Source of the DNA: Paraspadella gotoi
Taxonomy: Eukaryota > Animalia > Chaetognatha
Assembly: GCA_051294375.1 (NCBI GenBank)
Contig: JBJCIZ010001226.1
Coordinates: 17,641-49,437, forward strand
DNA length: 31,797 nt
Direction of reading: 5' to 3'
The notes beneath the pieces are model-generated. The model saw only the letters and a list, made by a program, of their open reading frames with translations. It was not told the origin of the DNA and did no database searches. The translations under genes were made by a program, and so were the position numbers. Below, one piece after another: positions 6,882 to 31,528 of the stretch (its first letter is position 1; each line of letters opens with the position of its first letter).

Positions 6882-7120
6882 GTGGTCTTTTCATACAATT
6901 GAAACATTCTTTGAAATATTTTCCACTTCATTGATAGGGAAGCCAGGTACTCTGGGAGTGAATAAACGGGACTGTGAAAGTCTTGATTGAAAGCTTGCAG
7001 GGACCTGCTATGTCATTATCTTGTAAGAGTGATGGAGGCCTTAAACCACCAAAGTCAGGGGCAAGATAGCTTATTTATTAAATGAATGGATAATTTTTAT
7101 ATTGGTTGTACCAATTTCAT
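6882..7120 (+). repeat. Dispersed repeat 'X', longest copy (fixed 3' end, variable 5' truncation)
   Basis: caaagtcaggggcaagatagcttatttattaaatgaatggataatttttatattggttgtaccaatttcat recurs at 16766-16811, 21926-22017, 29130-29220 and 31392-31528; a diverged 5' part lies at 17738-17870. Confidence 0.9.
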
Positions 7121-7935: not shown

Positions 7936-10900
7936 ATGGTTTTAATTTCAGAAGCATCCATGAATGATACAGAAGTAACGAAAGATTGTTGTATTTGTCA
8001 AAAAGCCAACAATGAATCCATTTCCTGTGAATTTTGCAATTATAACTTTTTTCATCCTGTAAATGAATACCAAAGTAATGGATCTGATGAAGAATTCCAA
8101 ATTACTGACTTTAATATTGAATCTTTACTTGATAATCATATTCTTAGTTATATCTTGATAGAGCATAATTATTCCAAAAATATTCCCTCATTGATTGGTA
8201 AAAGAATTCATAAAATTTCCAATTATCATAAAGACAAACATTCCATTGAGAAAACGAATGTTACTTCTTGTTCTTTTGAAGATATTGTTGACACTATAAT
8301 AAATGATACCGAATTATCTTCTTCTAAAAAAATAGAGCGGTTCCCGCAGAAAAGTCTTTGTATTGATCCAAGTATATTTAATGAAATTAAATTGAATGCT
8401 ATTCCAAATAAAAATTTTCAATTTGTAGTCTGCCAATCTGTTTATCAACATCATTTTCGCAAATTATTAGAAGAAGTAAATAATCGTTGTATTTTTCATT
8501 CAAAAAGTTGTGTTTTCTTGAAAAAAAGTAACACGCTTAAGGCAATTTTTTATTGTGCCGCTCGAGGATGTGAATTGAAATCAGAGGTGATTGTAAACAA
8601 CCAAGGGAAAGCTAGTTTAGAATTTTATTTGAATAAAAAATATGATATTAGAAATTCGAATTCGCACATACTTGTTTCTCATAAACCTGATGTTCCAAAA
8701 TGTAATTATGTAAGACAAAATGAAAGAAAAACCTTATTTAAAGAATTAGAAAACAAAACGCCGAATCAGGTTTATGTATCAATGAAATCCAAATTAACAA
8801 GTGAACATGTTGTAGCAGGAAAGACTTCTTATAGTAAAAGGGTATGCAAAGAACTTGTTTTTGAATCGCGAAAACATATGTATCCAGACGAAAATTGTTT
8901 ATCCTCTCTTATCAAGTTAGCGAATAAAATGGATTATATTCAGAGTATTAATATTCTTCCAAATATAGAAGTAGTTTGTTTTTTGAAATCCTTTTTAAAG
9001 TTAGGAGCGCAGATGTCGTATCATTACACCATTGGAGTGGATGGGACAACTGATTTTGTTTTTGATTTTTTAGGTAAAAGGTTAGAATTATATTCATTTA
9101 CAATAAAAAATCCTATTGTAGGAAATGCTCCGATTTGCATTGCCGCAGGATTTTTATCATGTCAAAATCGTGAAGAAATTACTAGTCTTTTTCAAAAGAT
9201 TAAAAATGCTATCATTGATCATATTCCAAATTTTTGCCCACCACAGGTAGTTTGTGATAAGTCATTCGCTATTATCCGATCTCTTTTAGTTGTGTTTAAT
9301 AATGAGGATCTAACTGCTTATATCTCTAGATTATATCGAGTTGCCTATGGTTTGGAATGCAATTCGTGTAATAAAACCTTAGTTCTTTTATGTGCTCGGC
9401 ATCATTTTCAATCTATTAAAAGAGAACTTTTTAAAATAAAAGCAAATGAAGAATGTAAAAGATTTTACACAATAGTTGCTTCGTTACTTGTATCTTGTTT
9501 AAATTATTCTCATTTTAAATTTGTTTTACATCAAATGATTATTATTGGAACTAGTAAAAAGGATAATATTTATGTAAAAAGAGCTAAGTTAGAAATTAAG
9601 AATTCTTTGAAATCTATTAAGGATAAAAATTTTGAATTAGATAATGATAATCATTTTGAAAAAGAAAACCTTCAGGCCGAGTCAGATTTTGTTAGTTTTG
9701 TTCACAATAATAAAAATCCTTTAAAAGAGTCTGAATTTTATAAAGATTTTCTTGAATTAAAATGTAAAATTCAAGATTCTGACCATGAGGACTCATTTAA
9801 TAATTTGTATTGCCCAAAGTTTATTGAATATTATGGATTATTTTGGGCATCTTTTCCTGTCTATGGAAATATTTTTCGGGGTAAGTTTCGAAAACCGGAA
9901 CAAGTAGACCAACTTGACCGGTTAAGACATACGTCTGTTTTAGACAGGACTAACAATGTTTCTGAACTGCGAAATAAACTGTATAAAGATTTATTACAAA
10001 AAAAAGTTAGATTGGATGTTGCTATTATAAAGTTGGAGGAATATGATCGTTCTCTTTTTATTGAACTATCCGAAAATCTTTTATTTGAAAATATTTCATG
10101 TAGTAAAAAACGAAAACATTTTACTGGCATAAATGCACCCGAAATTTGCAGAAAAAGAAAAATGAATAAGGATTCTTCTTTGATGCTTGAAGATGTTGAC
10201 GTTGCCAATGTAGTTGATGTTTATACTTCTCATAATGATTCTGAATTAATACAGCCAGGAATGATTTGGCCTGCTTTCATGTTTACTTATCAAAATAAAG
10301 TAAATGCTTGTAGCACTATGGCCACAATTAATTTTTTTAGTAACTCTTATTCCATCAATGATATGCTTTTTCAATTTAGAATTTTAAAAAAACCGTATCC
10401 CAGTGATTTTTTTAAAAATCTTGATGAAATGTTATTGTCGGTTTATTTCAATTATTCTCAAAACAATTTATCTGTCAGAACCAATGAAGAAGTTTCAAAA
10501 CTTCACCAATCTTTTATTTCTCATCATGCTTTAGATCACATTTCTGAAAGACAGTTTACTATTGACTCATTATTTCAACTTTTGAATTCGTCTTCTTTAT
10601 CAATAAAAGATATTTATAAATGTGGGCATTGTGATTTCGAATCTGAATTCGTTACCAATCCGCCTTTTTTAACTATTGCTGCAAATCCCATCCTTTCAAT
10701 GTCAGAATGTATAAACATACAATCAAAATCAGAGCCCGTTTCAGATTTTACATGTTCCCAATGTGATTATTTAGGGATTGCTCAATTAGATCAACTTTTT
10801 ATTGATTCGCCAGTGAATTTAATTATACGTGTAGGAAGGGATCGGGATCAACGTGTAGAACAAAGTATTACTTTTTTAGGTCCAGTTGAAATTGAAATTC

Positions 10901-12576
10901 AACTTTCTTTTGGAATAAAAATTGTTGTTGATGGAAAAGAAGTAAATTATAATTTAATGAGCGGTCTTTGTTTTGCTGGTAATGACAACATGGGACATTT
11001 TTATACATTTTCTCCTATTTTAAATAAAAATCAAATTATAGTTTTTGATAATGACAATTATTTTATTCTTAAAACTGGATCTGCTGGTTTTAAAAAGGTT
11101 TCTCGTGAAATTATGTATTTAAATTATGCCAGAGCAAATGATTTGAATCAGTCGTTAATTAATAAACTAAAGTTTAAGCTGCCTCTTTTCGATATTGTGA
11201 AACGCTCCCTTTCAGAGACAGTAAGTTCAGAAAATGAATTTTTAAATAAACATTTTGGCATGTATGTCTGCAATCAGTCAATCTTGTCCAAGCAATACAA
11301 AAGTTTCATGGTTCAATTAGATGCAATTGATCGTTTATATCATCAGTCTCTTCAAGTGTGGTTTGAAGTTAAGTTTTTTTGTGTTTTTTGTTTAAAAACT
11401 TTTATTATCGGTGAAACTATTTCTCCACTTGAAATTATTCAACAATCTTTACAAAGTTGGAAAAACCAATTAAAACAAATTGGTCTTTACGGAATAACAC
11501 AACAAGGCTGCAAACATGCTATTGAAGAAGAAGATTTACAACTTCAAATTACACATTTACCCGAATATATAGTAGTGTTCAATAATTTTTTTGAAGTAAA
11601 TCGTGTTGTAACTCTTTTGAATCAATACTTGTCCAGTCTTAAAGAAATAAACCCAAACTTCAAGGACTCGAGTTATTTCATAGAAAATATTTTTATTAGT
11701 TCAAAAAATGATTTTTTCACACCTAAAAGTAATGAATTTGTAAGCGAGAACACTAGAGAAAAACTTTCAAAATCGGCCATTAGTAGTCTTAGCTCTGTAG
11801 ACAATATTTATTTTATTAAGTTAAGTCTTCCAAAGATGACTGAAATAACTGGTCTTAAACTTGCAGACAGTGAAGCATTGTTGAGCTTCAAAGCATTTGA
11901 TTTTTGGGATTCTTATAAAAGTATTGAAGAGCTGCCTTTAAATAAACTATGTATTAGCCAAACAGTTTTTATTGGGAATCTTATTCTGAGCGAAAATGAA
12001 CAAAAAGAAATTTTAGACTTGAACATTCCTCTGACAACAAAGGTGATTGATTGTTTCTTTCACAGCGTTTCAAAAGTTTTTTTTTTAGAGTTTTCGTATA
12101 TTGGGGCTTCTTCCCATAGTTTCTTGGAAAAATATTCTATACCGTCAATTGTTAATACTTTACTTAACGACTGTCATGACTTTGAACGCGTACTTTTACA
12201 TGAATCAACACAAGATATACTTATTGGAGTTGTAGAGGAAGAAAATACCAAAAGTTTGTTTTCTTACCTTTTTCACTGGGAAAAAAATGTTTTGCTTACA
12301 TATGATCCAATTTCTCCTATTCAACAATCGAAACTTAGTAAGATAGTTGATCAGATTAGGGTTTTATCTTGGCGTAAATCTAAAACCAATGAATATATTG
12401 AACATTTTGATTTAGCTTCGGCTAATCTTGTTCAAAACAAACCGAATCAAATTTTCTCAAGTACTTATATTTGTTTAGTTCCTTTCTTTTTGTTTTTAAA
12501 CAAAAATTTTAGTATGTCTGAAGAAGTAAATCGACAGTTTATTTTGCAGACAATTTTAAATGCAAATAAAAATTAA
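7936..12576 (+). CDS. Mutator (NOF/Rehavkus-like) DDE transposase fused to a USP (C19) protease, a degenerate USP-like segment and an inactive Ulp1-like domain
   Basis: Uninterrupted 1546 codons. MULE motifs: VDGT (D369), VVCDKSFA (D441), CARH (486-489), RTNNVSE (E677). Partial PHD-like CxxC..CxxC..FH and a CxxxxC Zn motif at the N-terminus. USP boxes NKVNAC (C792), GHFYT (H1021), FDND (D1038). Ulp1-like LTTKVIDCFF..YDPI..Q at the C-terminus. The true start may lie in an upstream exon (acceptor tttcag ending at 7951). Confidence 0.88.
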   Translation: MVLISEASMNDTEVTKDCCICQKANNESISCEFCNYNFFHPVNEYQSNGSDEEFQITDFNIESLLDNHILSYILIEHNYSKNIPSLIGKRIHKISNYHKDKHSIEKTNVTSCSFEDIVDTIINDTELSSSKKIERFPQKSLCIDPSIFNEIKLNAIPNKNFQFVVCQSVYQHHFRKLLEEVNNRCIFHSKSCVFLKKSNTLKAIFYCAARGCELKSEVIVNNQGKASLEFYLNKKYDIRNSNSHILVSHKPDVPKCNYVRQNERKTLFKELENKTPNQVYVSMKSKLTSEHVVAGKTSYSKRVCKELVFESRKHMYPDENCLSSLIKLANKMDYIQSINILPNIEVVCFLKSFLKLGAQMSYHYTIGVDGTTDFVFDFLGKRLELYSFTIKNPIVGNAPICIAAGFLSCQNREEITSLFQKIKNAIIDHIPNFCPPQVVCDKSFAIIRSLLVVFNNEDLTAYISRLYRVAYGLECNSCNKTLVLLCARHHFQSIKRELFKIKANEECKRFYTIVASLLVSCLNYSHFKFVLHQMIIIGTSKKDNIYVKRAKLEIKNSLKSIKDKNFELDNDNHFEKENLQAESDFVSFVHNNKNPLKESEFYKDFLELKCKIQDSDHEDSFNNLYCPKFIEYYGLFWASFPVYGNIFRGKFRKPEQVDQLDRLRHTSVLDRTNNVSELRNKLYKDLLQKKVRLDVAIIKLEEYDRSLFIELSENLLFENISCSKKRKHFTGINAPEICRKRKMNKDSSLMLEDVDVANVVDVYTSHNDSELIQPGMIWPAFMFTYQNKVNACSTMATINFFSNSYSINDMLFQFRILKKPYPSDFFKNLDEMLLSVYFNYSQNNLSVRTNEEVSKLHQSFISHHALDHISERQFTIDSLFQLLNSSSLSIKDIYKCGHCDFESEFVTNPPFLTIAANPILSMSECINIQSKSEPVSDFTCSQCDYLGIAQLDQLFIDSPVNLIIRVGRDRDQRVEQSITFLGPVEIEIQLSFGIKIVVDGKEVNYNLMSGLCFAGNDNMGHFYTFSPILNKNQIIVFDNDNYFILKTGSAGFKKVSREIMYLNYARANDLNQSLINKLKFKLPLFDIVKRSLSETVSSENEFLNKHFGMYVCNQSILSKQYKSFMVQLDAIDRLYHQSLQVWFEVKFFCVFCLKTFIIGETISPLEIIQQSLQSWKNQLKQIGLYGITQQGCKHAIEEEDLQLQITHLPEYIVVFNNFFEVNRVVTLLNQYLSSLKEINPNFKDSSYFIENIFISSKNDFFTPKSNEFVSENTREKLSKSAISSLSSVDNIYFIKLSLPKMTEITGLKLADSEALLSFKAFDFWDSYKSIEELPLNKLCISQTVFIGNLILSENEQKEILDLNIPLTTKVIDCFFHSVSKVFFLEFSYIGASSHSFLEKYSIPSIVNTLLNDCHDFERVLLHESTQDILIGVVEEENTKSLFSYLFHWEKNVLLTYDPISPIQQSKLSKIVDQIRVLSWRKSKTNEYIEHFDLASANLVQNKPNQIFSSTYICLVPFFLFLNKNFSMSEEVNRQFILQTILNANKN

Positions 12577-16853: not shown

Positions 16854-17030
16854 GAGACAGTAATTATTGTTATGAGTTAGTGATAGAACCGTTCAATATA
16901 AGCAGTCCCTGAGCTTCGGATCAGGCTGTAACACCATGTTACAGGCGGGTTAAGCGCCCCGTCCCTCTAAACTGCCAGACGACCACCGGGCAAGAACCCC
17001 GGACCTTTGGGTTGGGAGGCGAATGACTTG
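16854..17030 (-). mobile_element. tRNA-derived SINE, 5'-degraded copy
   Basis: Reverse complement aligns with 28992-29129 plus 29221-29240. Confidence 0.8.
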
Positions 17031-17692: not shown

Positions 17693-17915
17693 GTGATTGG
17701 ATGGATGTCATTCGCATAAGAATAATTAGTCTCTTCAGTGGTAATTTTATACAATTGAAACATTCTTTATAATATTTGATTAATAAATTATTTGGGAAGC
17801 CAGATAGTTTCAAAGTGATTAAACTTGTGTGTTTTGTTTGAACGCTTGCTGGGTCTTATCTTGTAAGGATGTAGAGTTGGAGACCATTACAGAAGGCTTC
17901 GTATTATAAAATGTG

Positions 17916-18591
17916 GAACCCCTTTTTTGTGACCAGAATCTGTTCCCACCAAACTACCCGATCGAATTTAATGAAATTTTACATTTAGAGTGCTCATGAC
18001 TATATAAATGGAACTATCGAGGCGAATTTTGATGTTCAATCCCCTGACTAGAGATACAGGGCCCTGGGGGTGGACCCCTGGGGGGGCCAAAAAGTGCTAA
18101 AATTTTTTTTCATTTTTCAAATTTTTTTAGTAGCATCAAGTGCATTGATGTTTTAAACATAAGAAAAAAACATTTTAGAACTAAAATTGATAAATCTGCA
18201 ATAATTAAGCATGGTTAAAGATGCATGGTTCATCGTTTTACTTCCAATTTTCCCAAATTATTCCAAATCTGACTAACTGCTGATGTTCATGAAGCTAAAA
18301 ATTAAGGTAAATCAATATTTTTTAGGTAATAAATACGTTTTTGTGGAAGAGTAAACGTCTGTGCAACTGTTCAAAACAAAGATAATTAAAAAATTTGGAA
18401 AAAAATTTTTGACAATTTTTTGCCCCCATGGGTGACCCCCCGGGGGACCCATATCTCGGCTCAGCGGTCAAATATTAAAATTCGCCTCGATAGTTTTATT
18501 AGTATTCACATAGGGATCGTTCATTCCAAATTTCAATAAATTTGGTCCAGTAGTTTTCTCGGAACGAGTTCTGGTCACAAAAAAGGGGTAC
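17916..18591. mobile_element. MITE with long imperfect terminal inverted repeats
   Basis: ACCCCTTTTTTGTGACCAGAA at the left and TTCTGGTCACAAAAAAGGGGT at the right; inner inverted pairs aactatcgaggcgaatttt / aaaattcgcctcgatagtt and G-rich/C-rich blocks. Confidence 0.85.
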
Positions 18592-18641
18592 TATGGCAAC
18601 AGCCGGGTTGCCTGTGATGCCCATTGGGATGGGGCATCTCA

Positions 18642-18728
18642 CTGTTGGCTTTGGGGGCTTCCGACCCTCAGTGACGCCTCCAGTCACTGGCGCGGTTACC
18701 CTAGGACGGTCTCGCTTTGCCAATACAG
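18642..18728 (-). ncRNA. Type-P5 twister ribozyme candidate (copy 1); predicted cleavage U/A between 18698 and 18697
   Basis: CUGUAUUGGC(P5) AAA GCGA(P2') GA CCG(T1') UCCUAGGG(P1) UAA CCGC(P2) GC(T2) CAGUGAC..GUCACUG(P3) A GGG UCGGAAGC CCC(P4/L4) C AAA GCCAACAG(P5'). All twister elements are in permuted order; P2 has one C-A mismatch. Confidence 0.75.
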
Positions 18729-19088
18729 AGGGAAGTCGTTAGGACTGTGGATGGAACACTACGCCTGGGATGGTGTGTTCCCCCTCTGAGCCAATGTATT
18801 TGGCTGAAGGATGGTGGACGTGAGGCGGTGTGAATATACCGCCACAGGATCCCCGGGTCAAGACATCACTCAGGTTCCTCAAGCCTGAGAGGTGTCTGAC
18901 AAGACTGTTACCATAGTGGGAGAGAGAGAGCGCGAGTTGTGGGAGCAGAGGCGTTTGTCGTAGCGTACCCCAGGGGCATAGGCGTTTGTCGTAGCATACC
19001 CTGAGAAGGTTGCATGTTCGATAGTAGGGCTCACCACTTATGGCAACAGCCGGGTTGCCTGTGATGCCCATTGGGATGGGGCATCTCA

Positions 19089-19175
19089 CTGTTGGCTTTG
19101 GGGGCTTCCAACCCTCAGTGACGCCTCCAGTCACTGGCGCGGTTACCCTCGGACGGTCTCGCTTTGCCAATGCAG
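19089..19175 (-). ncRNA. Type-P5 twister ribozyme candidate (copy 2); predicted cleavage between 19145 and 19144
   Basis: Same fold; L4 reads UUGGAAGC, which keeps T1 pairing with CCG through a U-G wobble; P1 region is UCCGAGGG. Confidence 0.72.
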
Positions 19176-19389
19176 AGGGAAGTCGTTAGGACTGTGGATG
19201 GAACACTACGCCTGGGATGGTGTGTTCCCCCTCTGAGCCAATGTATTTGGCTGAAGGATTATAATATGAAGCCTTCCATATAGCCTGTCTAATGTGTAGA
19301 CCCTCTTAAACCCATAATCATGGATGTTCAATAAAACTACATGGCAACTGTAGCTTACAGTGTAGGCAGATTTATGTAATTGATAATTG

Positions 19390-21150
19390 AGCACTAAACT
19401 ATTCAACCTTTACGCTAAACTACTCAACCCAAACCCTAAACTACTCAAACCTAACCAAAACCCTAAACTACTCAACCTTAACCAAAACCCTAAACTACTC
19501 AACCAAACCCTAAACTATACCTGTCAACCAAAACCCTAAACTACTCAACCTCTAACCAAACCCTAAACTACCTTCCAAACCCTAAACATAAAACCTTAAA
19601 CTACCCCAACCCTACTAACCACCAAAACCCCTAAACTACTCAACCTAACCTACTCAACCAACCCGACAAACTATTTAACCCAAAACCCTAAACTACTCAA
19701 TCCTAATCCTACTCAACCCTAACCTAAACTACTCAACCCTTACCCTAAACTACTCAACCCTAACCCTCACCTAAACTACTCAACCCTAACCAAAACCCTA
19801 AACTACTCAACCCTAACCAAAACCCTAAACTACTCAACCCCCCACCGTAAACTACTCAACCCTAACTCGAACCCTAAACTACTCAACCCTAACCAAAATC
19901 CTAAGCTACTCAACCCAAACCAAAACTATTCAACCAAAACCTAAACTACTACCCAAAACCTAAACTACTCAATCCTAATCCTACTCAACCCTAACCCTAA
20001 ACCACTCAACCCTTACCCTAAACTACTCAACCCTAACCAAAACCCTAAACGACCCAACCCTAACCCTAAACTACTCAACCCAAACCCAAAACTATTCAAC
20101 CCAAAACCTAAACTACTCAATCCTAATCCTACTCAACCCTAACCCAAAACTACTCAACCCTAACCAAAACCCTAACCAAAACCCTAAACTACTCAACCCT
20201 AACCCAAAACTATTTAACCCAAAACCTAAAACTACTCAATCCTAATCCTACTCAACCCTAACCCTAAACTACTCAACCCTTACCCTAAACTACTCAACCC
20301 TAACCAAAACCCAAAACGACCCAACCCTACCCTAAACTACTCAACCCAAACCCTAACTACTCAACCCAAACCCTAAACTACTCAACCCCCCACCGTAAAC
20401 TACTCAACCCTAACTCGAACCCTAAACTACTCAACCCTAACCAAAATCCTAAACTACTCAACCCAAACCAAAAACTATTCAACCCAAAACCTAAACTACT
20501 CAACCCAAACCCTAAACTACTCAACTCTAACCCTAATCTACTCAACCCTAACCAAAACCCTAAACTACCCAACCCTAACCCTAAACTTCTCAACCCTAAC
20601 TGTAAACTACTCGACCCTAACCCAAACCCTAAACTACTCAACCCTAACCAAAATCCTAAACTACTCAACCCAAACATAAGACTATTCAACCCAAAACCTA
20701 AACTACTCAATCCTAATCCTACTCAACCCTAACCCTAAACTACTCAACTCTAATCCTAAACTATTCAACCCTAACCCTAAACATTAACAACACCCACTAC
20801 TCCTAACCCTAAATTGACAATAACATTAACTCTAAACTGAACTTAACCCTAAACTACTCATCCCTAACCCTAAACTACTCAACCCTAACCCTAAACTACT
20901 CAACCCTAACCGTAAACTACTCAACCCTAACCCTTACCCTAAACTCCTCAACCCAAAACTACTCAATCCTAATCTTAGTCAACCCTAACCCTAATCTCCT
21001 CAACCCTAACCCTAAACTACTCAACCCTAACCCTAAACATTAACAACACCAACCTACCCCTAACCCTAAAATTGACAATAACGTTAACTCTAAACTGAAC
21101 TTAACCCTTACTCAACCCTAAGCCACCTTAACCCTAACCCTACTCCTACT
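19390..21150. repeat. Telomere-like satellite built from CCCTAA plus an ACTACTCAA spacer
   Basis: Dozens of units of ccctaaactactcaaccctaa, with variants and longer recurring blocks. Confidence 0.95.
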
Positions 21151-21160
21151 TGTCAATTTT

Positions 21161-21305
21161 AGTTTAGTTTCGGCGAAATCGTCATAACTGGAATGCTCAA
21201 TGTAGTTAACTGCTAAATCGCCAAATGGTGAGGTCGTCTTTTGGTGATTTGGCACTCAACTCTATTAAGCATCCATGTTATGGTTATTTTGCCAAAACTA
21301 AACTT
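21161..21305. repeat. Imperfect palindrome with about 65-bp arms at the satellite polarity switch
   Basis: 21161-21225 is an imperfect reverse complement of 21239-21305; C-rich repeats lie on the left and G-rich (ttaggg) repeats on the right. Confidence 0.75.
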
Positions 21306-21477
21306 GGATTAGGGTTAAGGTTGAGGTGGTTTAGGGTTGAGTTGGTTTGGTTTGGTCGGTTTGGTTGGTCTGGTTTGGTCCCATGCAACGGGAGGAATGC
21401 CTGTGATACCCGGGGCGCGGGTTATCTCACGAGACAGACAGCGGTGAGGCAGCCTTAAGTCTTGCCACAAATTACTA

Positions 21478-21770
21478 TTTTTATGTTTGAGATAGAAAAT
21501 GTATTTTTTTAAGAGTTTTATTAAGAAACAAATTTCAGATATGATTCGTCTTTAATGTAAGCCTTCGTCAGCGCAAAAACGAATTGATTTGTGAAACAAA
21601 TATTTTCACAGACTTCGAAGTTTAAATAGAGAGTCTGTGAAAATATTTGTTTCACACATCAATTCGTTTTTGCGCTGACGAAGGCTTACATTGAAGCCGA
21701 AACATGTCCAAAATTTATGTATCTTAATAAAACTTGTAAACAAAATACATTTTCTACCTCAAACAAATAA
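21478..21770. mobile_element. Inverted pair of PLE-type hammerhead repeats (arms about 137 bp, 17-nt spacer)
   Basis: 21478-21614 is the reverse complement of 21632-21770; the left arm has a degenerate minus-strand hammerhead (GAAU in place of GAAA). Confidence 0.85.
21675..21708 (+). ncRNA. Minimal type I hammerhead ribozyme (PLE-type)
   Basis: CUGACGA-A-GGCUU(ACAUUG)AAGCC-GAAA-C-AU-G-UC; intact core and palindromic stem III. Confidence 0.82.
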
Positions 21771-21925
21771 ATGAATGGAAAAACAATATTTTTATGTTAT
21801 ATTTTTTAACGGTTAGCAATTGGATTAAGGGTGATCACTGATGTTCTCATGATCAGGGATTATGAGTAGTTAGGGATTAGGGGTAGTTAGGGTTAGGGGA
21901 TGTTTCGAAATAAAATTTGTAATAT

Positions 21926-22017
21926 AAAGCCTGTCCAAAGCCTGTCCAAAGTCAGGGGCAAGATAGCTTATTTATTAAATGAATGGATAATTTTTATATT
22001 CGTTGTACCAATTTCAT
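21926..22017 (+). repeat. Repeat X copy with an 11-bp tandem duplication at its 5' junction
   Basis: aaagcctgtcc occurs twice, followed by the shared X 3' end. Confidence 0.9.
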
Positions 22018-25000
22018 AAAGTTTTTCTACCCTTTATTAAGGGTATAAAAAAAAAGACACTCGTAAGGCCCTTACCAGTGTCTTTTTTTTTGCATAGCAG
22101 AAACGAAAAACAATTAACCGAGCGCAAAATCCCAGACTTCGAATATAAAATTAAGCCATTAATTTATCTCATTTTTATTTATGGACCTGCTGAGAATAAT
22201 ATCATTTTATGATTATTATTTTCATGTCATAACAATTTTACTTGAAGAAACCCATTGGAGAGAAAGAAGACGTCAGGATCTTGGGTTTGGGGGCGCCTTT
22301 AATGTTTATAATTGTTTCTCTGGCCAATTAGTACCATTATAAATTATATTAAATACACATATATATATGTAGCAAATTAATTTGTGGCTTATTTCAGATG
22401 AGATCGAGTTCTTCAATCTCATGCATATTCTCGTATTTTGATTAGGCTTCAATCTCATTTGCATATTGTCGTATTCTGTGATTAAGCTTTGATAAAATTT
22501 ATTCTATTGCCCTGAAGGTTTAAAATTAAGATTTTACATTGAATAATGATCATGTTTATCTTGTTATGACTAATTGACTAATGATCATGTTTATCAGTTT
22601 ATTTGCCATGTTTATTATTAAATATTCTTAGCATTTAGATATTGAAACAGAAAATAATTTGATTTGTTATTGAATGACTTTTGTTTTCCCTTTAAGGTCG
22701 AGCTTGTCTGGTTTGGTTTTGCACAGGAGGTGCTGCGGCTTCCAGCAGCAGCAGCAGCACCACATGCCCAAACCCACATGCCTAGCGTGTCTGGAGCTGC
22801 TACGCAGTGTCGTTTGTTTTACATACTCATATCTGTTGAATTGAGACTTTGAGTTGCCGACTGCCGAGTCGGTCCAACAATGGAGAAACAAAAAAGAAAC
22901 GATTCTACAGTTCTAGCATTCTAATAAGACTACACAAAAGAAATTGAATTAAAATTTATTAAATAAGTAATTACGTTGAAAATAAATTAATAATAAAATA
23001 TTAAAATTGTAATGGACCGAGACCGAATAGGTTACATGCATATTACAAAATCGTTTTGATTCCCTATGCATTTATTTTAACAGGCAAAGTCCTTTAAGTT
23101 AATCTTTTTAAATATGCAGAACTAGCAGTAGAAATTCATGGTTATTGGATTTATTAGCTTTTCAATAAACTATCATATTCATTGCTATACTTAAACTAGC
23201 TTACTATAAGTAAATTCATTGTCAATCCCGTTTCTTTTATTAAAATTATTAAAAAAATTGATAACTTTTCAGATTTAGTAGACTGAATGAGTTTGATGGT
23301 TATAAGAACACTTATGTGTTTGGTGACGATATCGAACTTAGAAGGGAACTTGTATATATTGAGTCCTGAAGCCAGCAACGTTCTAGCGTCTCTTTTTCAA
23401 CCATTTCTGTATTTCTTTCGTAGATATATCAAAGAAAAGGTCTTCATTAGGCGGGTCTGGAATAATTAAAGAAAAAGTTTGGATTACTTGCATAATATGA
23501 CTTCTTAACAAGTAATGATGTTCTAATATCTATTGTAAAATTAGGGCGAAGTAACTTTTTTTTTTTTTTTTTTTTTTATAGTTTTAACTTTGTGTTGTAT
23601 AGATGCTCCCTCTATTTCCAGAAGTAACAACACTAACATTCCCTCTCGCCATTACATTATATAAAGAATACTTTTATAAACGAATATATTAAATCATTTT
23701 TAAATTTTAATATGAAATTTTTAAATGTCTAATATAGAAACAATAATCTGTTTATTTTTCATAGTCTGGCATCTATTTTAGTTGGTATAGGTTCCTTAAA
23801 AAAATTCTGATAATCATAATGCCAAATTTTTTTTCCAATAGTAACATAATACTTCGTTAATTAATTTTACAACATTTTAGTGCTTTTTTTGACAGTTGTA
23901 ATACATCTGTACTACAGAGTGTCTCGAGCGTAGTGTCCATTTACAATGAATCAGTGAATCAGTACAATTAGAAAATAATATATTTATTTTACCGTTGGAT
24001 CCAAGAAGTTCTTCAGTTTTATATGATGAATTTTATTTTTAAATCAACTTTCATTTACATTTTATCAGCTCACGCAAATGCTGGATTTTTTTTAATCAAT
24101 ATTTAAATTTTCAAATCTTCCGACAACCAAAAAAAATTTTTTCAGGCTACTTGGTTAATATTAAGATTTAATAATATGTTATTTGGCATATGATGATCAT
24201 ATGTTTTCCTTACATATTTTTCCATATCCTTTCGGATTTGAGGAGTATTAATTGGGTACATGAGAGAATATACCGGAATGCAGTGGTTTGATTACAGCAT
24301 TGCAAATTGCATATAAGATACACTCAGTGGAAAAATAGTTTTTTAGCAGTAAAAAATATTTTATGAATTCAGATTACATGCTGATCTAGCACACTTTAAA
24401 TTTACAGCATTTATCTGTTCCTGAAACTAAATTTAACGAGCGTCATTAAACAAATTTCCTTAAAATCAATTCTTTGCATCTTCACCTATGAAATCATTAT
24501 ATTATCGTCATCTTCCCAATTTAATAAATTCTTAAGAAGGAATAAGGCAACAACAACTAATGTATGGCCTACTGTGCTTAATTAACATGCAAATCATTTT
24601 TTTAAATAAAGCAGGAAATCTTAAAATTATAACATTGGATTGTCGAAGACAAAAATCTCCTGATTTGAACGCCGCTGATGTGCAATAAAATACAAATAAA
24701 ACCATAAGATTACATATAAGCTACCGAAAAGACTGTAATGAACTTCTCTTTTCGTGACTAGTTCTTTCAAATTAATAATTCACCTGTACCAATTTGACAC
24801 AGCGTTATTTGCAAAGTTGACGTATGCTTGAAGACAATCTGTAACTTGGAAAATTTACAAGTAGTTGGAGGTCAGTTTAATTCAGACTTGGAATAATTCA
24901 ATATTCCGCATAATATTTTTCGATCGACACCGCTTGCTATCAAAAGACTTGCTATTTCTTGCCGTACTGAATACATTCATGGACATCACGATCAGTAATT

Positions 25001-25026: not shown

Positions 25027-25807
25027 GTGGCGGTATATTCACACGCCTCAGTCCACATCGTTCAGCCTCCCCAAATCATTGTCAGAGGGGATCACACAAT
25101 CCAGGCGTAGTGTTCTATCCACAGATCGTAATGACTTGCGTTGTGGCAACAGAGCCGACAGTCCTACCCGGTACGCGCCAGGACTGGATGCGTCAACTGA
25201 GGGTCGGAACGCCCCAACAGCCCAACAGTGTGTATCGATGCGCCGCTATTCCCAATGGGCATTCACAGGCACCCGGCTGTTTCCATAAGTGGTGAGCCCT
25301 ACTATCAACACGCCAACCTTCTCAGGTACGCTACGAGACAAACGCCTATGCCCTGCCTGACTTCGGTCAGCACTATGGAAAACGCTATGCACTGGGGTAC
25401 GCTTACGACAAACGCTATGCCCCACCGGGCTCCTCTCTTTCTCCCTATGGTGCAGTCTGTAACCTCTCAGCCTGTGAGGAACATGAGTCGATGTAATTTT
25501 TGGTGCGAGGGGATCTGTGCCGTATACAGTTCACACGCCAGCTCACGTCCACATCGTTCAGCTAACATCCATTATGGCTCAAGAGGGGAAAGACCAAAAC
25601 CCGAACCACCACCCACCTAATCCCTCCCCCAACGGCGTAGTGTTCCATCCACAGTCCTAATGACTTCCCTCCTGCGTTGGGCAAGCGGAACGTCTCTAGG
25701 GTTAACTCGCCTCAGTGATGGATCGTCACTGAGGGTACGGAAGCCCCAAAGCACACAGTGAGCATGCCCCAATCCCAATGGGCATCAAGGAACCGGTCTG
25801 TTGCCAT
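25027..25807 (+). mobile_element. Second array of repeat Z (about 1.6 units, indel-rich), inverted relative to 18593-19258
   Basis: Colinear with the reverse complement of Z; degenerate twister motifs at about 25136-25228 and 25672-25758; ends at the same gttgccat. Confidence 0.85.
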
Positions 25808-28971: not shown

Positions 28972-29240
28972 GCGGCCATTGGTGCCGGAGGCAAGTCATT
29001 TGCCTCCCAACCAAAGGTCCCCGGGTTCTAGCCCGGTGGTCGCCTAGCAGTTAGGAGGGACGGCGGCTTAACCCTCCTGTACATGGTTGATAAAAATTGA
29101 TCCGCTTATATGAACGGTTCTGTCACTAAGCTTAAACCACCCAAAGCCTGTCCAAAGTCAGGACAAGATAGCTTATTTATTAAATGAATGGCTAATTTTA
29201 TATTGGTTGTACCAATTCATATAACAATATTATTGGTCTC
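28972..29240 (+). mobile_element. tRNA-Gly(CCC)-derived SINE, with repeat X inserted at 29130-29220
   Basis: Acceptor stem GCGGCCA/TGGTCGC (28972-29043), A box TGGTGCCGGAGG, anticodon loop CT-CCC-AA, B box GGTTCTAGCCC; body shared with 16854-17030. Confidence 0.8.
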
Positions 29241-31391: not shown

Positions 31392-31528
31392 AAAGCTTGC
31401 AGGGACCTGCTATGTCATTATCTTTAAGAGTGATGGAGGCTTAAACCACAAAGCCTGTCCAAAGTCAGGGCAAGATAGCTTATTTATTAAATGAATGGAT
31501 AATTTTTGTATTGGTTGTACAATTTCAT
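31392..31528 (+). repeat. Repeat X copy
   Basis: Aligns with 6990-7120. Confidence 0.9.

Follow-up and report, generated by a model that had tools for sequence, protein, structure and literature searches.

Can a retrozyme carry a twister ribozyme in place of the hammerhead? The question is raised by a short repeat of Paraspadella gotoi. It lies in the window, that is, the whole stretch of 31,797 nt that was analysed. A sequence-only reading had described the repeat as a 447-nt tandem unit, GC-rich, hairpin-dense and with no credible open reading frame. It also placed every element of a P5-permuted twister on the minus strand and proposed that the unit cuts itself out and is retrotransposed. 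In the available parts of PMC6765202, PMC5680766, PMC4918200 and PMC10085705, retrozymes are described with hammerheads only.

The repeat and its two insertions

Self-comparison of the window delimits two insertions of the repeat, A and B (Table 1). Insertion A contains a direct repeat (18592-18812 and 19039-19259) of 221 nt each. The spacing is 447 nt, and three substitutions separate the copies. The other 226 of the 447 nt are single-copy within the insertion. The proposed period of 447 nt is right, with an array of only 1.5 units in insertion A. The unit is indeed rich in GC (56%, compared with 37% in the window). It is also dense in hairpins, and none of 100 shuffles folds as well as the linear monomer (z -3.5). 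The circular monomer beats 60 of 60 (z -3.4). Likewise, the antisense strand folds better than its shuffles (z -3.0). A long predicted stem of the monomer (19034-19049 with 18905-18919, minus strand) spans the point where both insertions stop. It is a possible priming or recognition site.

The unit appears to be non-coding, as had been claimed. Its length is divisible by three, and on the minus strand one reading frame runs over 148 codons without a stop. We rejected a coding role for this frame because it has no Pfam match and 12.6% of shuffles give an equally long one. Searches of the unit for tRNA genes, clear Pol III boxes and a poly(A) signal found none. A hammerhead core is absent from both strands (no CUGANGA, no GAAA and no Rfam hammerhead match).

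Table 1. Positions of the features in the window.
Feature	Position	Strand	Basis
Insertion A, 668 nt (1.5 units), non-coding repeat	18592..19259	minus (RNA sense)	self-comparison and junctions
3' end of insertion A	18592..18593	minus	coincides in unit position (within 1 nt) with the 3' end of insertion B
Twister-like motif, copy 1, P5 order with P3; one G·U in T1, central G·A in the P1 segment	19092..19170	minus	descriptor and pair table
Twister-like motif, copy 2; T1 of three G-C pairs, P1 segment fully self-complementary	18645..18723	minus	descriptor, pair table, partial Rfam twister-P1 match, model R2
Predicted cut 1, U/A of UAA	19144..19145	minus	analogy with twister L1 (PMC8501958, in part)
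Predicted cut 2, 106 nt before the 3' end of the element	18697..18698	minus	predicted from the motif
Predicted monomer between the cuts, 447 nt	18698..19144	minus	positions of the two predicted cuts
P1 segment, copy 1	19146..19153	minus	self-duplex -6.2, with copy 2 -6.4 kcal/mol (predicted)
P1 segment, copy 2, 8 nt, self-complementary	18699..18706	minus	self-duplex -11.0 versus hairpin +2.7 kcal/mol (predicted)
Rival helix: P5 5' strand (19166-19174) with T2 and P3 5' strand (19130-19138)	19130..19174	minus	predicted fold
Internal sub-repeat, two copies 31 nt apart in insertion A, three in insertion B	18950..19015	minus	sequence comparison
Insertion B, about 780 nt, same family as A, two damaged motif copies, indel-rich	25027..25807	plus	self-comparison
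Family C motif, P5-order twister-like	31428-31468	plus	Rfam Twister-P5 25.9 bits, E 0.15
Family C, related copies	6990-7120, 21926-22020, 29130-29225		sequence comparison
Family D, about 150 nt, P5-order twister-like motif at 16910-16968	16877-17030	minus	top window match of model R1 (13 bits, E 0.055)
Family D, second copy, adjoining a family C fragment	28992-29129	plus	sequence comparison

Insertion B is 73% identical to insertion A. Its unit is longer, about 521-532 nt, and contains one internal sub-repeat more. The differences from A comprise 67 gap events (46 of 1 nt) and 49 substitutions, of which 15 are transitions and 34 transversions; CpG loss is absent. We infer that they look like long-read error, which makes the motif copies of insertion B illegible. 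Insertion B was rejected as a source of covariation because of the 1-nt gaps that make up most of its differences, the excess of transversions and the lack of CpG loss. The material for covariation consists of two clean and two noisy copies, with three substitutions within insertion A.

The ends of the insertions are more informative about how the repeat moved. Both share an RNA 3' stop within 1 nt, located 106 nt beyond the second predicted cut, while their 5' ends differ. Target-primed reverse transcription leaves this footprint, in which the 3' end is constant and the 5' end varies. The two sides of insertion B carry an 8-nt repeat that has one mismatch, and the chance of such a repeat is 0.018. 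Insertion A shows no target-site duplication, and the flanks of the two insertions are otherwise unrelated. Penelope-like elements leave partial tandems like those seen here (PMC8557442, in part). Judging from these junctions, the repeat was probably inserted via RNA. The second locus supports the earlier claim of retrotransposition, that is, a mobile and RNA-templated element.

Each of the two insertions crosses the predicted cut site twice. This points to a circle or an uncut multimer as the template. From n=2 insertions, it would seem that priming 106 nt from the 5' end of a cut linear monomer can account for the double crossing only with jumps.

Other features occur in the window. The inverted ends of one element (17918-18589, about 670 nt) are long and imperfect, and this element stops 2 nt from the 3' end of insertion A. 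The sequence to its left (17892-17908) and that to the right of insertion A (19260-19276) form an inverted repeat with 16 of 17 nt matching. The match may mean that the target was palindromic or that insertion produced an inverted copy. Further on, a degenerate telomere-like unit of 21 nt is repeated over 1.6 kb (19394-21038), and downstream of this array a short stretch is inverted (21300-21360). A near-perfect inverted repeat of 85 bp with outer arms, MITE-like, occupies 21477-21772. Finally, an intact ORF of 1546 codons (7936-12576, plus strand) has Atlas features that strongly indicate a eukaryotic MULE-type transposase. It showed no Pfam match and no scored relatives among 6014 candidates. 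By its sequence, it would be a divergent and apparently intact DNA transposon.

Twister-like motifs in the repeat and in its neighbours

The helix names and the consensus follow PMC5408937 and PMC8501958 (both in part) and the Rfam model lines. On the minus strand, each motif copy of insertion A presents the blocks in the order P5, P2, G-A, T1 partner, P1 segment, U-A-A, T2, P3, P4, L4 and T1. The pair table gives P5 5/5, P2 3/4, T1 3/3, T2 2/2, P3 7/7 and P4 3/3 in each copy. The catalytic G and the following A are at 19158/19157 in copy 1 and 18711/18710 in copy 2. The U-A-A cleavage loop is at 19145-19143 and 18698-18696, respectively. Both copies conserve P4 with an inner G-C pair and the loop U-NNN-A-A-G-C. 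Likewise, both have the T1 (three pairs) and T2 (two pairs) pseudoknots, with one G·U in copy 1. So, the block order, the catalytic bases, the pseudoknots and helices P3 to P5 are as the sequence-only reading stated. However, not every element is complete. P2 has three of its four pairs, P1 can close only two as a hairpin, and the P2 pair adjoining the active site is a C·A mismatch in both copies. At the level of sequence and pairing, both proposed cuts hold (19145/19144 and 18698/18697), with 447 nt between them.

A strict descriptor, composed after the motif had been seen, matches the window in exactly two places, the two copies of insertion A. It matches none of 60 local window shuffles and none of 3000 unit shuffles. 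A wider descriptor, extended once family C had been seen, finds the same two copies and one copy of family C. It gives five matches in 300 shuffled windows.

The change in L4 between the copies (UCGG to UUGG) had been read as keeping the T1 pairing. The pairing is kept, with a G·U in place of G-C. Nevertheless, this is not covariation, since it is a single C-to-T at a CpG. On the sequence it is tolerance, with no evidence of selection. In both copies of insertion B, L4 reads CGG and the P1 palindrome has the same centre as that of copy 2. Because of this match with copy 2, copy 1 would carry the derived bases. It presents two changes absent from copy 2 and insertion B.

We used covariance models on the motif. 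The Rfam check that the sequence-only reading had proposed gave no match on the motif over the whole window. The Twister-P5 model (RF02684, threshold 37.6 bits) gave none at E up to 5 or 10. With 201 nt around copy 2, Rfam gave a partial twister-P1 alignment (model positions 11-56, 15.2 bits, E 1.1). A first control set of 64 loci provided 30 distinct P5-order cores from phages and prokaryotes, with P2 and P1 paired. When Rfam was run on 18 genome loci among these control twisters, 5 were above the P5 cut-off. Model R1 was built from the 30 phage and prokaryote twisters, with P3 left out and T1 fixed by the search pattern. It misses both insertion A copies in the window. Model R2 was built from 17 cores with a junction of P3 size, in which only one P3 pair was aligned. 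It ranks the insertion A copies first and second in the window (11.6 bits and E 0.23 for copy 2, 11.3 bits and E 0.27 for copy 1). However, P2 and P1 are mis-registered in these alignments, and chance pattern matches score up to 19.6 bits. The covariance models neither confirm nor exclude the twister motif.

A second control set, obtained by a pattern with free T1, comprises at least 124 loci and at least 116 distinct phage P5 cores. T1 was paired in 115 of the 116 cores among the matches listed and occurred in 20 types; the type of insertion A is absent from these 20. The sequence of T1 varies freely among natural P5 twisters. P3 was present in 19 of 116 phage cores among the matches listed, and the Rfam P5 model does not include it. 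A prokaryotic P5 twister (L048:149-209, minus strand) presents P3, a P1 of three pairs and a C·A in P2. Its Rfam score is 30.6 bits, below the cut-off of 37.6. The C·A in P2 seen in insertion A occurs in one of the 30 control twisters. The weak model scores of insertion A may be due to these features: the Rfam P5 model lacks P3, a core with P3 and C·A like this prokaryotic one falls under the cut-off, and T1 varies. Four of the phage contigs (L108, L136, L155 and L098) have 2-5 P5 twisters each among the matches listed, on the same strand and 400-600 nt apart.

The bare sequence pattern was also searched in phage and metagenome contigs. It gave 31 chance loci; 30 could be parsed (one was at a contig edge), and none of the 30 has three or more P2 pairs. 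As possible relatives of the repeat, 28 metagenome loci matching the motif pattern were rejected, all being chance. Family-specific patterns gave no matches for the repeat families in phage contigs. No relatives appeared by blastn against 50,697 phage records or in one metagenome scan. Taken as sequence, the motif of the repeat very probably has a twister-derived fold.

Two other families in the window present twister-like motifs in P5 order. The family C motif has a compensated T2 (AC/GU), a bulged P2 of three pairs, a palindromic P1 of 5-6 nt and a P5 of seven pairs. Its four copies have a common 3' end and different 5' ends. The sequence resembles a Naiad-type tail. The family D motif shows P3, a bulged P2, a palindromic P1 of 6 nt and an inner P4 pair A-U instead of G-C. 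By eye, its 5' part is tRNA-like; ARAGORN found no tRNA there. Family D is a candidate twister-bearing SINE.

The resemblance of family C to Naiads can be followed in published consensus sequences. We inspected by eye 5 of the 54 Naiad tails in supplement S5 of PMC8557442 (Naiad_Bpla, Naiad_Mphi, Naiad_Scon, Naiad_Mmer and the record preceding Naiad_Bpla). These five bivalve tails appear to have unannotated P5-order twister motifs with P3, P5 and palindromes at the P1 position. The motifs lie 110-250 nt from the 3' end, with one or two palindromes each. Between species, P2, T1, T2, P3 and P5 show compensatory changes by eye. The mussel-type tails and family C have in common, again by eye, T2 AC/GU, the bulged three-pair P2 and the P4 sequence. 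The available text of PMC8557442 reports Naiads without a canonical hammerhead, and the word "twister" occurs zero times in it. The exact L4 motifs of insertion A and family C gave, in the part of its supplement consulted, first matches outside the Naiad file or none. These exact motifs give no direct sequence link to Naiads. Within the window, the MULE-like ORF points to a eukaryote, and the likeness of family C to bivalve tails is the hint of an animal.

Folding of the motif and the proposed route of copying

The P1 segment of insertion A lies between T1 and the U-A-A loop and has 8 nt. In 116 of 116 phage P5 cores among the matches listed, the segment has 12-30 nt, with a pattern that allowed 4-30. 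As a hairpin, only two pairs can close (+2.5 to +2.7 kcal/mol, predicted); between two copies, up to eight pairs can form. Being self-complementary and shorter than in the listed phage cores, the segment suggests cutting as a dimer. Families C and D likewise have self-complementary P1 segments of 5-6 nt. Once the outer pairs are given, the centre would be self-complementary by chance with a probability of 0.06-0.14, and the palindrome of insertion A taken alone is weak evidence of a dimer. Metazoan hammerheads with a helix of 1-2 pairs and a palindromic loop act as dimers (PMC4209133, in part). Axolotl retrozymes also have the short palindromic helix of the dimer type (PMC7229834, in part). 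On the other hand, the palindrome need not mean a dimer, because twister P1 is dispensable in vitro (PMC5408937, in part). Natural type-P1 twisters also tolerate defects in P1 and P2 (PMC11662667, in part). For these two reasons, the motif may also cut as a monomer. We find it possible but somewhat doubtful that cutting would need a dimer.

The predicted folds present an obstacle. In copy 1, the 5' strand of P5 is predicted to pair with T2 and the 5' strand of P3, and an equivalent rival helix is predicted in copy 2. This helix would block the active fold. In the lowest-energy fold of the whole element, P3 and P5 are absent. Forcing the nested twister core costs 8-15 kcal/mol, compared with medians of 3.1-3.7 in the 30 controls (90th percentiles 7.5-9.1), in energies that ignore pseudoknots. 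P3 and P5 are predicted to reach a brief peak at the moment when the 3' strand of P5 is transcribed. The peak values are 0.32 and 0.28 in copy 1 and, in an uncut transcript, 0.82 and 0.72 in copy 2 (pseudoknots ignored). We consider it somewhat likely that the motif is able to cut itself. In its twister reading and its cut positions, the earlier interpretation agrees with the sequence and the pairings, and insertion B supports its mobile element. However, it missed the fixed 3' end, the self-complementary P1 and the rival helix, which makes the monomer fold costly.

We slightly favor a retrozyme-type, non-autonomous retroelement, with a twister in place of the hammerhead and dependent on a Penelope or Naiad element, that is cut, circularised and copied back. 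The route would begin with read-through transcription over a tandem locus. The two twisters would fold transiently or assisted by a dimer, with their short palindromic P1 segments probably paired to each other. The two predicted cuts would then release the 447-nt product. Twister cleavage leaves a 5'-OH and a cyclic phosphate. A host RtcB-type ligase may join the monomer, by analogy with hammerhead retrozymes (PMC7229834, in part). Refolding into the rival helix would protect the circle. Reverse transcription would be primed at a fixed point about 106 nt inside the monomer and go more than one round. Whether the circle served as template is close to an even question, leaning slightly against.

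The reverse transcriptase would be supplied in trans by a Penelope-like element, probably a Naiad. In the window, no reverse transcriptase or partner ORF was found among 121 frames (three marginal Pfam matches, E 0.02-0.05, none convincing). A Naiad-type partner enzyme is suggested by analogy, with family C as a local hint, and we regard it as an even possibility. Hammerhead retrozymes themselves have been argued to be non-autonomous Penelope derivatives (bioRxiv 10.64898/2026.07.22.740005, in part).

A broader proposal can be made, and we hold it as speculative and rather unlikely. P5 twisters with a palindromic P1 would be the Naiad clade's substitute for the dimer-type hammerhead. In tandem transcripts they would need to form domain-swapped dimers to cut, and they would be silent in the monomer circle. 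Several non-coding parasites would have captured them (the 447-nt unit, the Naiad-like tail and the tRNA-headed SINE-like repeat) and be copied round the circle by the Naiad enzyme. The 447-nt unit would then be the first twister-built retrozyme.

The same insertions could come from a twister-bearing, non-autonomous Penelope-like element copied from a linear and partly uncut multimeric RNA. There the ribozyme would trim the ends or be a passenger, and a circle would be unneeded. An uncut read-through multimer also yields insertions of more than one unit and explains the three differences between the insertion A copies. The costly monomer fold fits the weak cutting of this route, and minimal Penelope hammerheads cut poorly in vitro (PMC4209133, in part). 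However, it requires a donor array, and none lies within the window. The strong folding of the circular monomer fits a stable product instead, although the linear form folds as well. We consider the linear route unlikely, but with a real share of the probability. A fossil is quite improbable: a once-active twister family whose present copies no longer cut. It would account for the C·A in P2, the rival helix, the costly core fold, the broken copies of insertion B and the two changes peculiar to copy 1. Nevertheless, neither insertion A copy has lost the catalytic G or A, a pseudoknot, P3, P4 or P5. Moreover, the CHiTA study found cleavage for about 94% of the natural type-P1 candidates (PMC11662667, in part).

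An integrated viroid-like circular RNA, replicating at the RNA level with occasional reverse transcription, is very unlikely. Its size, GC content and the folding of both strands would fit. Metatranscriptomes have yielded twister-bearing circles of 494 nt (10.1101/2022.07.19.500677, in part), and the unit is divisible by three with one nearly open frame. However, that frame is within chance and the opposite strand has no ribozyme. The identical 3' end of both insertions and the two further genomic families of twister-like repeats in the window also argue against it. Finally, a chance look-alike in a GC-rich repeat duplicated at the DNA level would agree with the lack of a significant covariance-model match. 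It is extremely unlikely, in view of the empty shuffles of the strict descriptor (60 of the window, 3000 of the unit) and of the 30 pattern-matching controls that fail to pair in P2. In addition, the layout is common to three unrelated repeats within 32 kb.

If the twister retrozyme is true, the strategy of tandem unit, self-cutting, circle and borrowed reverse transcriptase would be independent of the ribozyme class. A short palindromic helix that limits cutting to dimers would have evolved in two unrelated ribozymes. It would also explain the seeming lack of a ribozyme in Naiads, which belong to the most abundant Penelope-like elements, and would provide a natural dimer-gated twister.

Comparison with known systems

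Twisters have been tied to the 5' ends of LINEs (PMC8501958, in part) and mentioned as in preparation for RTE elements (PMC7761336). They are also reported in viroid-like circles (10.1101/2022.07.19.500677, in part) and as tandem pairs in fungal viruses (PMC13725137, in part). The term "twister" does not occur in the available part of bioRxiv 10.64898/2026.07.22.740005. Our literature search found no genomic twister retrozyme or Naiad twister, in a coverage that is thin for subscription papers; the 2014 discovery alignments may hold eukaryotic P5 copies.

Viroid-like circular RNAs are recognised by ribozymes in both polarities or by the lack of a DNA form. The repeat has the motif on one strand only and is integrated twice. 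The twister variants of the Schistosoma Perere-3 LINE (PMC8501958, in part) resemble it as retroelement-linked twisters of an animal with a weak or absent P1. However, they are of type P1 and lie at the 5' end of a coding LINE, whereas the motif here has P5 order, is repeated and lies near the 3' end of a non-coding unit. Naiad Penelope-like elements (PMC8557442, in part) share the partial tandem insertions and, by eye, the tails with P5-order twister-like motifs. Conversely, Naiads encode an endonuclease and a reverse transcriptase, and the repeat is non-coding.

The type-P5 twister (RF02684; PMC5408937, in part) shares with the motif the block order, the UAA loop, the G-A, two pseudoknots, the inner G-C of P4, L4 and an open P5. 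The motif differs by its P3, by the C·A in P2 and by an 8-nt self-complementary P1 instead of the 12-30-nt hairpin of the listed phage cores. Type-P5 twisters belong to phage and prokaryote DNA, whereas this motif is in a eukaryotic repeat and below every model threshold.

By its anatomy, the repeat resembles a retrozyme, but one without the defining hammerhead of the type and under the Rfam P5 threshold. Animal retrozymes carry a type I hammerhead per unit, whereas the repeat carries a twister pattern and no hammerhead core. Its GC content of 56% is above the values typical of them (under 50%; PMC7229834, in part). Its arrays reach only 1.5-1.7 units, and each of the two insertions in the 32 kb has two consecutive motif copies, damaged in B. 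The length of the unit falls within the 51-972 bp reported for animal retrozymes. With the animal non-LTR retrozymes (PMC7229834 and bioRxiv 10.64898/2026.07.22.740005, both in part) it shares a short, non-coding, head-to-tail unit with one ribozyme per unit. It also shares with them a layout free of LTR and PBS, a well-folded monomer and a short palindromic helix of the dimer type.
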